Shown: positions 7,652-53,037 of the stretch, piece by piece
How the letters are laid out: each line of letters begins with the position of its first letter
How positions within the stretch are numbered: position 1 is the stretch's first letter
Assembly (NCBI GenBank): GCA_951406725.2
Contig: OX597816.1
Coordinates: forward strand, 1,178,001 to 1,242,000
Reading direction: 5' to 3'
Length of the DNA: 64,000 bases
Source: Octopus vulgaris
Taxonomy: Eukaryota
The notes under the pieces: model-generated
Seen by the model: only the letters and a program-made list of their open reading frames with translations
The model's database searches: none
What the model was told of the DNA's origin: nothing
Position numbers and translations under genes: made by a program

Positions 7652-7800
7652 AATAAGCACATAATGCAAAACAAGGTGGAAAAAGTAGTTCTCGAATAGC
7701 GAAGGTAGAGTAACATGCTTTCTTATTAAAGCTTCAAAAACATCACAAAACTGTTACTCAGAGTTTCACGTGTTTCCGTTCGTCGGACAGTTGCAATCAA
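7652..7800 (-). mobile_element. Penelope-like pseudo-LTR remnant beside a (CA)n tract
   Basis: Homologous in opposite orientation to 11855-11937 (aaacaaggt.gaaaaa.tagt.ctcgaata.c..aggtagagtaa.atgcttt); contains a hammerhead motif. Confidence 0.65.
7749..7792 (-). ncRNA. Minimal type I hammerhead ribozyme motif (U4C core variant)
   Basis: Minus strand AACUGU-CCGACGA-ACG(GAAACA)CGU-GAA-ACUC(U)GAGU-A-ACAGUU: 6-bp stem I, 3-bp stem II, 4-bp stem III, GUA cleavage triplet. Confidence 0.75.
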
Positions 7801-8258
7801 AACTGGGTTTCGATGATGTATTTGTAACGTTGTATTTCTAATGCAGCACTCAATCCGAACGAAAGGCTACGTACAGTCTTGCATTGAGTCTCAAGAAAGA
7901 TCGAAATTCTGCTGGTATAGAAAGTGCAGGTCTTACGCCGGTAAATCCCATGTGTAGGTCTTGCGAAGAGTAAAATATGATCTAAATAAGAAGACGGAAT
8001 TTAGCACATCCTTAATGGCTGGTCATTAAAAGATGGGCTAAATACTCTTTCCATTCTCATTTGGATTATATATATATATATATGTATATCTTACGTGTTT
8101 GTGTGTGCATACGTTTATGCATGTGTGCTTCCTCGCGCATGTGAATCATGTATTAACGTGTATATTTTACATTTAAAAGAGAACACACACTATAGCACCT
8201 AAATGCACAAATGTGCACAATCACGCACATGCACGCGCGCACATACACACACAAACAA

Positions 8259-8348
8259 ACACACACACACACACACACACACACACACACACACACACAC
8301 ACACACACACACACACACACACACACACACACACACACACACACACAC
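8259..8348. repeat. (CA)n microsatellite
   Basis: Directly visible. Confidence 0.95.
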
Positions 8349-9553
8349 AAATAATAAAGATATAGTATAATCCGTTTTAGTTTTTCGTAGTCGACCAATT
8401 TTTATCGAGAAATTTCTCGGTAGACAAAAACAAGAATTATTGCTGAAGATAAATCCTGGCTGCTAGTCACAGAATGAAGAAAGTCGACGACTGCGGCGAG
8501 GCTTTGCCTGGGGAACAGTAAACGGTGGAGGCTGTAAAGTTTGGTTGTTTTCTTTATTGCACCACCTCCCAACTCTCATCACTTTCAGGCTATTTATATT
8601 TTATTTTATTATCTGGCAAGAAAAAAGAAAAAAAAAACTTTTTTGTTGTTGTTGTTGTTGTTTAGTTTTCTCACACAAATTTAAAAAAAAACTCGAGTGC
8701 AAACTTTGCTCTTGTACAAGTGCAACGCCATAGACAGACGGATCAGAATGTGTGTGTGCGTGTGCATGCATGCGTGTGTGTGCGAGTGCGTGTGCGTGTG
8801 TGTGTGTGTGTGTGCTTGTGTTTGTTTTTTCGTGTATTTGAGTGTACGTGTGCGTAATATGCTTGTAGTATGTGTGCGTAGTATGCATGCGTGTGTGCTC
8901 ATGCGTGTGTATATGTGAGTCTGAGAATTTGTCTCTGTGTGTTTGTGTGTGTGTGAGTGCGCTAGTATGCCTATGTTTGCGTTCACGTGTGTATGATGTA
9001 TGTATATGTGTGTGTGTTTGTGTGTGTGTTATGGAAGAATAACTACAGCCATTGTAAAGAAATAACACAAGGATTAATTATTTTGAGTAAATAATAGAAT
9101 GAAAGAAAAACTCTATAAAAAAATTACCGGGCAATTAATTAATTGTTATTCATTCATTATTCATGAGAAAGTTCCAGTCGGTTTAGACTAAACACGGGGC
9201 TTGAGGAGTTGAGAGGAACTGAAAGAAAATATTGACATTGACCAAATGTATTTGGCCATGAACTGAGGTAAATTTTTCACGAACCAAACACGACTACATT
9301 TTCTATAACGCAAAAAAAAAAAGAAAGAAAAAAACTTGTTTGAAATAAGATGTTGATCCATCGCAAGGTAACTAACATATTTTTTAGTAAATCTCGTGGA
9401 GTTAAATAAAATGCCTTACTGAAACGCCTGCAGTAAGATTAAAGTCTCGGTCTTTGAGTTGGTCATTTAATAACTTATCCTCTTGTCCAATACAACGCCA
9501 TGTTGCTTATTATCAAACATATCTGAAGTCATCTGGACCTCATAATAAAATTG

Positions 9554-10092
9554 TATATATATATATATATATATACATATATATATACATATATATATAT
9601 ATATACATTTATATATATATATATATATATATATATATATATATATATATATATATATATATATATATACATATAATAATAAATATTAGGGAATAAATCC
9701 CAAACTTACAGGGAAAAATCAGATTTAGGATTGAATCCAATTTTATAGTAAAATATTATATTATATTAAATTAGAGACAAAACCACTATTAGGCAAATCA
9801 AACAATGAAAAACTTAAGCCAATACATAAGATTAATTTATATTATTTAAATATATAACAAAATTATTAAAAAAATTAATTAATGATATTTTTTTAATAAT
9901 TTTGTTATATATTTAAATAATATAAATTAATCATATGTATTGGCTTAAGTTTTTCATTGTTTGATTTGCCTAATAGTGGTTTTGTCTCTAATTTAATATA
10001 ATATATATACATATATATATATATATATACATATATATATATATATATATATATATATATATATATATATATATATATATATATATATATAT
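9554..10092. mobile_element. Fold-back element (arms ~9757-9875 / 9887-10005) embedded in a (TA)n tract
   Basis: About 119-bp arms with one mismatch visible by eye, 11-bp spacer, (TA)n on both sides. Confidence 0.85.
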
Positions 10093-10096
10093 GTTG

Positions 10097-49700: not shown

Positions 49701-50978
49701 CTTACATAACATCCGGTTTCAATGCCATATCATGGAGTATTGGCTTGGAGGGAGAAAATGAAGCATACTATACTCTCCAGTTGAGGCATATTTTAGTAGT
49801 TGGAACGTATACTCACACGCGTGCGCGCGTGAAAGAACTGCTACTTCAAATAAGATGGCGTAGCGATCAACCGATTCTTAGAACTCTGTGTAAATTTATG
49901 CATATTCAAATTTCTTTCAAGTATTCAACAATTTCTCCACTGACTTTCTTTTGATATGTATTTAAATAACATTTACAGTGCATACATGAGAGTTGAATAA
50001 AGCAGGAAAATTAAATTTTATATAGCACCATAAATTAAGATGCTATAATAAAAAGATAAATTAATTCTCATGCTTTATTCTGCTCAAGTGTGTACACACA
50101 CACACACACACACTCTCTCTCTCTCTCTCTCTCTCTCTCTCACACACACACACACACACACACACTGTACAGTCACATCTAACGTTTCGTGTACATTAAA
50201 ACATAGAAAATCAAATACGTTACACAAGTTGTCTCGAAGAGAAGAATTTCTTCTTACAGAGAATATGGGTGGGTATTCTTGAATGTCTTCTCTTGGGACA
50301 AACTGTGCAGCGTTTGTTTCTCTGTGTCCGAACGTACGAGAACACGTTAAATATGGCTGTACATGTCATTCGATACTGCTCAACGCACCTCCATCAATAC
50401 ACACGCGCGCGCATGCGCATATATTATTTACGGGTTAACAAAGTAACTAATGGTTTCATGTGAAGAGATTTTCACAATTGCTCAAGCGCGCTACATGGAA
50501 GTGTTGGGACTCGTCTCCATTTTGTATGGGAATCTTCCTCTCCACATGTAGGTGTGCGCGCATGCGTGTGTTTATGTGAACATATATATATATATATATA
50601 TATATATATATATATATAATATAAAAAAAAGAGGGTGAAAAAAATTGGATATTAATTTAATAACATCAATTTAAATACCAGTGGCCTAGCGTATAAAAGA
50701 CTGAGATTCAGTAAATATACAAATATATACACACACACATATATATATATATATATATATATATATATATATATATATATATATATATATATATATATAC
50801 ATATATGCACATATATATACACACACATAAGTTAGGGTAAATCCCACCTGTTTCTTCTTGAAGTACATCTACTTATTCTAATATTACAATCAATATGAAT
50901 CCATAGTTAGTGCTGTATATGAATCGAAATATATATTAAAGTTGAGAATTATGGAAAAACTATTTGCAGAGTTAATGT

Positions 50979-51210
50979 AAAATAGGAAAATGGGAATCTT
51001 TTGATATTATTTATTCTCCATTACACGTGTTTCATTTACTAATAGGAATCAAAAAGATTTACAGGTTAGACATGTAAACAACTTCAGAGTTTCTAATAGG
51101 AAATTCTTTATATGTCTATCTAACATGTAAATTTTAATGATTCCTATTAGCAAATGAAATACGTCTAAAGGAGAATAAATGATACCAAAATATTTCCATT
51201 TTCCTATTTT
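50979..51210. mobile_element. Fold-back element (arms ~50979-51069 / 51119-51210) near TA/CA tracts
   Basis: About 90-bp diverged inverted arms; minus strand of left arm has GAAACACGUGUA. Confidence 0.75.
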
Positions 51211-51599
51211 ATCACACACACACGCACACACGTATGTATGCATTGTTCCCTTTTTTTTCTTTTTTTTTTTTTTGGTTGGTTTCTAACAAAAAAGCAATGT
51301 TCCATCGCTGGAATTTTGATAACAATTGCTCCCCTTACAGACTGTATCCGTCAAATGTGTGTTGTTAGGCGTTCTTTTTCTTTGTCTGGAAATCCTCGCT
51401 TTTCGAGATTGTCATTTTATACATTTCCTTACATAACTTAATACACCAGTAATTATTGATATAAATGTAATTTATCGTCAGCTGGAGGTTTTGAATAAGT
51501 GTCCATAAATATTCTTATTCACGCAGCTTTGGTAAATATGTTCTCATCCGGAGAGTAACTGACCTCTATAACTATACATGACTTTTATTTATTGTTTTT

Positions 51600-52190
51600 C
51601 TTTTTTTTTTTCAAACAACTAAATCAGGTTTGTTATGTTTGTAGTTGGTAAAAGCTGTGGTGAAAGTGTTCCATCAATATTCCTTGTGTTGATATGTATG
51701 AATATATTCAAAAACAGAGGTGTTGTTTATATTTATCCCAGGGAAGTCTTTTCTGTGGATGGCATTGTATATTGTTTCGGCAGCAACACCATCATATATT
51801 AATGGGAGATGGTACCTGGCTGATATTTTTGGTCAGCTGCCGATTACAGGTGTTATGCCATCCACAAAAGAATGATACACCTTATATTTATGGCTGAATA
51901 TTTGGAGTTGAAGGGTTTCATTGTCCCGTTTGTTCATTAGAGACATCATTGTAATCGTCTACTCAAGGCCTACCAAAAGCCTAACCTTCGAGATGTGGCG
52001 TGATATAACGGTCAAGAATGCAAGAGAGGCTACAATTCATGTTAATATTATCATCCTTCTCAAGCTTACGGGAAACATAGTCAAGCATCACATGTTTGCA
52101 GTCAGCAGAGAGTTTCTCTTCCAAATCTTTCCTTAAGTATCCTCGTCCAACACTCCAAGGTTCACATACAAAGTCATCAGAGAATGTGGG
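51600..52190 (-). mobile_element. R4/Dong-like fragment, heavily decayed
   Basis: Minus translation YHLPLIYDGVAAETIYNAI and YKHNKPDLVV. Confidence 0.65.
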
Positions 52191-52578
52191 TTTTTTTAAA
52201 GCTATTATTCAATTCGTTTTTGAGTAGTTGCTTGATTCATATATATATATATATATATATATATATATATATATATATATATATATATATCTTTGTACAT
52301 TTGTTTATTCCCATTCTTTATAGATATTAGTTATAGTGTACAGAGAAGACACAACTAAATCCCACCCTCCATATTTTTATTTATATATTTAGTTATTTCT
52401 GCTTAGGAATAACATTTTACGAAATTTTATAAATGCGAGCTTTCTCAAACCCAGACTAAAAGTTGACTTTTAGCAGAAAAATCTTTGTTCAATGGGAAAT
52501 AGGCTACACACATACATACCATTATATATATATATATTTATATATATATTGGAAGGTTTGGAGATGATGTACAGGTAT

Positions 52579-53037
52579 TATATATTAGAAGAAATGAGGT
52601 ACTCAGAAAATCGGATGGTTTATATTTACAGATATTTATTTGTATATTACATTTTTTATATATATCATATCACTTAGATCAATAGCGCTTTCTCCCATTC
52701 TAGTGGGGTTTTCAAATCAAACTAAGTTCCTGTGTGAGGAGTTTTGACTATTACAAAAATACACACACACACACATACACACATGTTCTCTCTCTCACTT
52801 TCTCCTCATCCATCACCCTCTTGTACTGTCTTATATTCCTCCCCACCACTACAAACTCTATAAAATAGTAAAAACTCCTCACACAGGAACTTAGTTTGAT
52901 TTGAAAAACACACTGGAATGGGAGAAAGCGTTAATGATCTAAATGATATAATATATATAAAAAATGTAATATACAAATAAATATCGGTAAATATAAACCA
53001 TCCGATTTTCTGAGTACCTCATTTCTCCTAATATATA
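52579..53037. mobile_element. Fold-back element (arms ~52579-52752 / 52864-53037) ending in (TA)n
   Basis: About 175-bp inverted arms incl. gaaatgaggtactcagaaaatcggatggtttatattt and its reverse complement. Confidence 0.88.

Follow-up and report, generated by a model that had tools for sequence, protein, structure and literature searches.

Introduction

Minimal hammerhead ribozyme motifs have been described in Penelope-like elements (PLEs), and in the parts of Cervera and De la Pena (2014; PMC4209133) that deal with them they are presented with the type I order, a short stem I, a palindromic stem III, a bulged base after A9 and the U3-A8 core among their features, as members of many families left mostly as solo relics, and also as pairs on opposite strands 100-700 bp apart. 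All of these traits recur in a 64,000-nt stretch of the Octopus vulgaris genome (contig OX597816.1, positions 1,178,001 to 1,242,000 of the forward strand; hereafter the window, in whose positions all coordinates are given). We consider it likely that ten repeat elements of the window are truncated PLE-like ends with fold-backs formed at insertion, nine of them from families with a predicted dimer-type hammerhead and one, family C at 10871-11583, with a predicted hammerhead of rewired strand order. An earlier note on this DNA, made from its letters, had supposed that the diversity and core variants may be undescribed; this does not extend to the opposite-strand pairs and the U3-A8 core, which are in the 2014 paper. 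The differences from the PLE motifs treated there are the stem-loop II of 58-114 nt in four of our families and the U4C and A6U cores, which are family-wide.

For the insertions themselves, the closest described systems are the endonuclease-containing (EN+) PLEs (Craig et al., 2021, PMC8557442; PMC11167929), which resemble our families in the inverted truncated copy beside a sense copy, the tail on one arm, the microsatellite flanks and, for families K and G, the order of reverse transcriptase (RT) and then GIY-YIG endonuclease; against what these papers describe in the parts considered, we find no essential difference for the nine families. Family C is nearest to the type-SGC hammerhead (HRIMA-1 and variants; Eckert et al., 2023, PMC10085705), sharing with it the block order of cut site, GAAA and CUGANGA, the full core and the short linker between stems I and II. 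It differs in that the 5' strand of stem II lies upstream and not behind CUGANGA, in the additional helices Pa, Pb and P0 with a kink-turn-like loop, and in its presence in an animal genome, while type SGC is reported in the relevant parts of that paper from no genome of a known organism. Naiads and their 'HHR_half_core' (Craig et al., 2021, PMC8557442), to which the passages on them ascribe no canonical hammerhead, share with family C the preference for (TA)n and, as judged by eye, the rewired order in two octopus Naiad ends; family C shows no open reading frame (ORF), and the wiring alone connects it with them. The retrozymes that lack long terminal repeats (non-LTR retrozymes) (bioRxiv 10.64898/2026.07.22.740005), as far as the portions used here describe them, are likewise PLE-derived non-coding units of several hundred nt with signs of a tandem or circular template, but they carry type I hammerheads in tandem arrays, whereas family C is dispersed and rewired and wraps around in a small part of its copies.

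Repeat Families of the Window

Eleven elements have been labelled by their starts as A (7652), B (9757), C (10871), D (12013), E (29475), F (33425), G (33740), H (40981), I (46721), J (50979) and K (52579), and every one of them is a member of a dispersed repeat family. Copies were searched for in the 2.8-Gb genome; the window is AT-rich and microsatellite-dense. For each query, 40 copies were scored out of 59-2943 first-look candidates, and 16-30 loci per family, picked by their likeness to the window element, were fetched.

The seven inverted repeats listed in the earlier note were all found by self-BLAST of the window, with no element matching another and with arm identities of 67-98% (B 97.6%, C 88.6%, E 67%, F 80%, H 85%, J 80%, K 94%). 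Its remark that most elements abut microsatellites was borne out, since 10 of the 11 have a microsatellite at most 40 nt from at least one end, the exception being 29475-29927. The four solo relics that it named are real repeats; those at 7652, 33740 and 46721 belong to hammerhead families, and 12013-12200 has turned out to be a piece of a DNA transposon. The wider proposal of many distinct families with a PLE link, dimer-type minimal hammerheads and variant cores is supported by the family sequences.

A Predicted Rewired Hammerhead in Family C

The element at 10871-11583 does not follow the type I grammar that the earlier note gave for many of the elements; its block order and helices are wired differently, in a way that the note did not resolve. 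Family C gave no match to the type I descriptor and does not have a circularly permuted block order. Its CUGAUGA has no GAAA behind it, and a relative in the flanking DNA has GAAA and the cut-site block upstream, so arranged that cut site, GAAA and CUGANGA follow each other with a full core and with stems I and III, which is the type-SGC order. Readings of family C as a half core and then as a plain type-SGC hammerhead were replaced in the light of Naiad ends, and the new reading was then put to the test.

We predict for family C a hammerhead in a non-circular order, in which the 5' strand of stem II is supplied from upstream and the backbone is opened between A9 and G10.1. The strands would follow each other as stem II 5' strand, P0, cut site, GAAA, P0 and CUGAUGA; the helices Pa and Pb would replace the A9-G10.1 link, and stem III would run through a kink-turn-like loop into P0, tying stems I and II together. 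Such a motif would fold and cut as a monomer. In family C, stem III is joined to P0 by an irregular loop, which could be a bulged-G motif instead of a kink-turn. A 12-nt palindrome at 11395-11406, seen in family C only, overlaps P0 and the loop before stem III; it might fold into a hairpin in competition with them, or act as a contact within a dimer.

For comparison across copies, 78 stretches were extracted, which fell into three large clusters and strays, and 32 of them were aligned without use of structure. The six helices are paired in 86.5% of the cells, compared with 77.4% in shuffles and 39-51% when the helices are slid. Two-sided changes occur in 18 of 32 pairs and in all six helices, the upstream stem II contributing three of its five pairs, and the plus arm in the window keeps all pairs of Pa, stem II, P0, stem III and stem I. 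A descriptor of the rewired form gave 15 matches in 1.05 Mb of fetched DNA, with none in the reversed DNA and 0-1 in five shuffles, while an exact pattern for this form gave 265 matches against 0 in the control. Two of the descriptor matches (L036:2703 and L129:3014, both on the minus strand) belong to a family unrelated in sequence to C, of which locus L314 is a further member. In this family the upstream stem II has 5 bp, the kink-turn pattern is clear, and a Pa and a Pb of its own can be made out by eye; its repeat unit of 832 nt ends at a TA tract. A type-SGC strand of stem II placed right behind CUGANGA is possible in the C group and makes zero pairs in the unrelated family; the upstream strand, as predicted from these alignments, fits all.

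Judged by its copies, family C is the only one that resembles a genuine non-coding unit. Its length of about 670-700 nt held no visible ORF, and it does not have the Naiad layout of an N-terminal GIY-YIG and a C-terminal RT. Six long copies share one start sequence, and 3 of 30 copies run from the usual end into the start of the unit; since this wrap-around is joined by the 832-nt repeat of the unrelated family, both probably were copied as non-coding units from tandem or circular RNA. The family C unit would be moved in trans, probably by a Naiad. The 3' ends of Naiad_Obim and Naiad_Ovul in the supplement of Craig et al. (2021) show the rewired order by eye, and a text search of that supplement, in which line breaks can split motifs, gave these two octopus cases only. 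The rewired form is likely, on the sequences at hand, to be the one used by Naiad elements.

No description of the rewired order was found in the papers searched. We incline to the view that an active hammerhead outside the six permutations assumed possible exists in animal genomes in thousands of copies, with Pa and Pb stacked in place of the single bulged base of PLE hammerheads and a kink-turn that folds stem III back as a clamp on stems I and II, and that it may be the missing ribozyme of Naiads and of non-coding, circle-copied partners such as 10871-11808. In its first framing, the fold-back system amounts to PLE debris of a well-known kind. Of more consequence is the rewired motif: if true, it would show that CUGANGA can be parted from its stem II strand, against the rule assumed in the pertinent part of Eckert et al. 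(2023, PMC10085705). It would also mean that a hammerhead of non-circular order is present at a high copy number in an animal genome, and explain why Naiads have been scored as lacking a hammerhead.

Predicted Type I Hammerheads of Nine Families

For families A, B, E, F, G, H, I, J and K a minimal type I hammerhead is predicted on the sense strand, in the order CUGANGA, stem II, GAAA, palindromic stem III, UH and stem I. A family-level descriptor that requires the palindromic stem III, and that was set after the alignments had been seen, matched 7 of the 11 family sequences in the sense and none in the antisense direction, where 0.22 would be expected from 500 shuffles of each. Families F and J were missed in this run; their long copies match in 3/3 cases for F and in 1/3 (2/3 when relaxed) for J. 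The core is canonical in B, F, G, H and J and of the U3-A8 kind in E and K, being intact in 18 of 20 K copies. Core position 4 is C in 20 of 25 family A copies and core position 6 is U in 29 of 30 family I copies, and in both families all other core positions, the three stems and the palindrome are conserved. With the core boxes 10 to 114 nt apart, stem II is as variable as the earlier note had stated, and the five stem III palindromes named there are real and conserved at the family level. The common type I grammar holds for the nine families, and not for family D, which has no family-level core, or for family C. The motifs would cut tandem transcripts as dimers by way of the palindromic stem III. 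Four contig sets presumed to stem from RNA contained members of the families but no ends, and they are given no weight as evidence.

Inside the window, a near-complete type I motif is found in A, G and I and on the minus arm of K only, so the ribozymes attributed to the window copies are there in part: fold-backs B and F hold no part of a ribozyme, and neither arm of E, H or J has an unbroken one. A loose type I descriptor matched 33 times in the window, compared with a shuffled mean of 20.75 (maximum 29), and strict sets matched 2-3 times, compared with shuffled maxima of 3-4. Because most window copies are worn, the motif rate is near that of shuffled DNA window-wide, while it is far above chance on the family sequences. 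An Rfam scan of the window listed no hammerhead and only microsatellite-driven matches among the best 150 of 229 matches, and a local scan of 33740-33960 gave no hammerhead and nothing relevant.

Link to Penelope-Like Elements

The nine type I families and family C are likely, as judged from their architecture, to be 3' pseudo-LTRs of Penelope-like retroelements. For four families the linkage to PLE ORFs that the earlier note suggested looking for has been seen: copies of G, K, I and E have upstream, on the same strand, remains of the RT and C-terminal GIY-YIG ORF of EN+ PLEs. ORF remains lie upstream on the sense strand in 6 of 20 loci of G and in 5 of 20 of K. A near full-length family K element (L255:600-5130) consists of an inverted truncated copy at its 5' side, an RT with motifs recognised by eye, a Cys-rich linker, an endonuclease and the K end; the linker is zinc-finger-like, a trait checked for the Neptune/Nematis clade. 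Contiguous endonuclease frames are single links each, in L088 for family I and, with an insertion, in L106 for family E. Endonuclease matches upstream in L181 (family B) and L067 (family I) were set aside, as they are not contiguous with the family ends.

Of the 19-30 loci of each of families A, B, C, F, G, H, I and K, 8-24 end at a microsatellite, as do 6 of the 12 of J; the query of family E stopped short of the end, so its count is not comparable. By target-primed copying, a PLE RT-endonuclease would copy RNA at TA-rich microsatellites, would often stop early and would add an inverted truncated copy.

A 5'-truncated PLE remnant at 6510-7384, which the earlier note did not name, carries on its minus strand a worn hammerhead (6656-6556) with a palindromic stem III, two core changes and a long stem II. 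Its frame 7384-7049 had no Pfam match and is read as endonuclease-like by its likeness to frames in L106 and L110, and also from a motif that we take to be that of an endonuclease. This frame was ruled out as the ORF of family A because it lies downstream of the family A end.

Inverted Arms

In seven families fewer than half of the loci have an inverted copy (for example K 3/20, G 4/20, I 4/30, C 7/30 and A 14/30), and family D has none; the junctions differ from copy to copy. The last 58-89 nt are missing from the inverted arm in A and B, in the manner of the one-sided tail described for PLEs (Craig et al., 2021, PMC8557442). In 66 two-armed loci with 6997 sites, 619 changes (238+381) are private to one arm and 116 are shared. 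The arms are likely, on this comparison, insertion by-products that decay independently and not regulators; both would decay neutrally after insertion, and nothing suggests that their pairing is under selection.

Evaluation of Alternative Explanations

Several points weigh against the assignments made above. The Pfam matches to GIY-YIG are below the cut-off (E 8e-4 and 0.028), three fragments of the RT region have no relevant Pfam match, and no RT or endonuclease ORF was found within 1.5 kb in A, B, C, F, H and J (12-30 loci each), so that the PLE or Naiad assignment of these six rests on architecture. Likeness to the window decided which copies were used, and U4C and A6U may for this reason be traits of subfamilies; the core was seen in 2 of 20 loci for B and in 2-3 of 19 for F. 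For the rewired fold, the 32 aligned rows were hand-picked from the 78 and represent about four related lineages, further pair types are not above shuffles (66/500), and the stability of 11340-11475, when folded with nested pairs only, is unremarkable (z -0.93).

Family C might instead be a plain type-SGC hammerhead, its upstream strands forming an off-state that holds both strands of stem II until the upstream part is removed. The type-SGC downstream stem II also pairs in 96.1% of the cells, with two of four pairs changing on both sides and a G-U to C-G change between families, which is why the C group alone does not decide between the folds; moreover, the bulged A after A9 matches PLE minimal hammerheads, and type SGC has been proven to cleave (Eckert et al., 2023, PMC10085705, in the part concerned). 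We nevertheless regard this explanation as unlikely, as the downstream stem has two wobbles in its four pairs and the upstream one has five Watson-Crick pairs with three two-sided changes, the unrelated family has no downstream alternative, and the octopus Naiad ends, as printed in the supplement, have by eye only about two downstream pairs. That all these motifs are chance matches in AT-rich repeats, as the window-wide descriptor counts and the Rfam result might suggest and as is true for 12013-12200, can hardly be right; the family-level excess on one strand and the covariation and controls of the rewired form refute it, at the level of sequence, for the ten families.

The proposal of the earlier note, with the fold-backs as non-autonomous families that retain the inverted arm as a block on the ribozyme and a source of long double-stranded RNA, is not supported and is now highly improbable. 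The arms would pair and bury the motif if transcribed (predicted at -322 kcal/mol for 10871-11583), and two-armed copies make up half or more of the loci in B (15/20), F (11/19) and J (10/12, the J query being the fold-back itself), B having about equal numbers of shared (37) and private (45) changes. On the other side stand the varying junctions, the mostly solo copies of seven families and the independent drift of the arms overall, together with two fold-backs without a ribozyme and three with broken ones; descent of both arms from a single subfamily template would lead one to expect the shared changes in B. Rather more serious, although we lean against it, is the view that in the U4C (A) and A6U (I) motifs, and perhaps in others, the ribozyme is slow or dead and has spread all the same, cleavage not being needed for insertion. 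U4C and A6C slow the hammerhead in vitro, U4C supports viroid infectivity (Perreault 2011, as far as used here), cleavage by minimal PLE motifs is weak (Cervera and De la Pena, 2014, PMC4209133, in the part on activity), and hammerhead mutants are reported to have had no effect on the insertion of an anole PLE in vitro. Because of the anole result and the slow variants, hammerhead activity may be low or dispensable for PLEs; against dead ribozymes speak the viroid result and the conservation of the rest of the motif in A and I. This view bears on activity only and is compatible with the PLE-end interpretation preferred here. The nine type I families in one window form a natural panel (U4C, A6U, U3-A8 and a stem-loop II of 10-114 nt) for the question whether PLEs need an active ribozyme.

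Features of the Window

The coordinates are collected in Table 1.

Table 1. Repeat elements, predicted ribozymes and their parts in the window
Feature	Position	Strand	Remarks
5'-truncated PLE remnant	6510..7384	-	endonuclease-like C-terminal frame 7384-7049, 3' untranslated region, worn type I hammerhead, TA tract
Family A, 3' end	7652..7815	-	intact predicted type I hammerhead 7791-7751, core CCGACGA (U4C), 9-nt palindromic stem III, predicted cut after 7755
Family B	9685..10005	-	sense arm 9880-9685 and inverted copy without last ~70 nt; longer copies have a canonical core further 5'
Family C, truncated inverted arm	10871..11048	-	has cut-site, GAAA and CUGAUGA blocks, without upstream strands
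Family C, body and 3' end	11049..11808	+	3' end to 11583, TA-rich linker, wrap-around into unit start 11773-11808
Family C, predicted rewired hammerhead	11346..11468	+	helices, predicted cut and core boxes in the rows below
Pa	11346-51/11463-68	+	
Pb	11352-57/11380-85	+	4/6 pairs left
Stem II	11386-90/11422-26	+	
P0	11392-97/11443-48	+	
Stem III	11405-09/11430-34	+	
Stem I	11411-16/11450-55	+	
Predicted cut	after A11410	+	GAAA 11427-30, CUGAUGA 11456-62
Family A, second, shorter 3' end	11853..11928	+	self-BLAST
Family D, non-autonomous DNA transposon piece	12013..12435	undefined	~15-nt terminal inverted repeats; no family-level hammerhead
Family E, fold-back	29475..29927	undefined	family core UUGAGAA (U3-A8), 114-nt stem-loop II; GAAA/cut block kept at 29826-29842 (+), core not intact
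Family F, fold-back	33425..33675	undefined	copy without ribozyme; longer copies carry a predicted one with ~97-nt stem-loop II
Family G, 3' end	33740..34236	-	canonical predicted minimal type I hammerhead 33898-33855; RT/GIY-YIG ORF remains adjoin copies of the family
Family H, fold-back	40981..41513	undefined	canonical family core, 58-nt stem-loop II, 8-nt palindromic stem III; neither arm intact in the window
Family I, 3' end	46721..46915	+	predicted type I hammerhead 46781-46817, core CUGUGGA (A6U), 4-nt palindromic stem III
Family J, fold-back	50979..51210	undefined	GAAA/cut block intact 51033-51016 (-), core box lost or worn in both arms; family core canonical, long stem II
Family K, fold-back	52579..53037	undefined	3' end of PLE, near full-length copy at L255; core UUGAAAA (U3-A8), near-intact on minus arm 52720-52680

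The ends of family D were found singly, the left one in 3 of 20 loci and the right one in 5 of 20, and are mutually complementary, with no locus giving both. A chance hammerhead-like motif can be read in 12013-12200 but is absent at the family level, and with no family core and complementary termini the element is assigned to a DNA transposon, which we take to be hAT-like and non-autonomous. At 12013-12035 an A-like end of about 20 nt lies inverted, opposite the family A end at 11853-11940 across the same TA tract, which interrupts this transposon.

An eighth and larger fold-back of about 600 bp (43193-43789; 88% identity) has no TA flanks and is probably a DNA-type foldback element. Broken frames at 35678-37048 on the minus strand and at 46112-46648 on the plus strand presumably resemble a DNA transposase and the C-terminus of a long interspersed nuclear element, respectively. 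A worn inverted pair at 54695-55137 (65%) has arms that look tRNA-derived by eye, while ARAGORN called no tRNA in this pair. A frequent short interspersed repeat is present at 47890-48292 and 54063-54478, in both orientations and with further partial copies.

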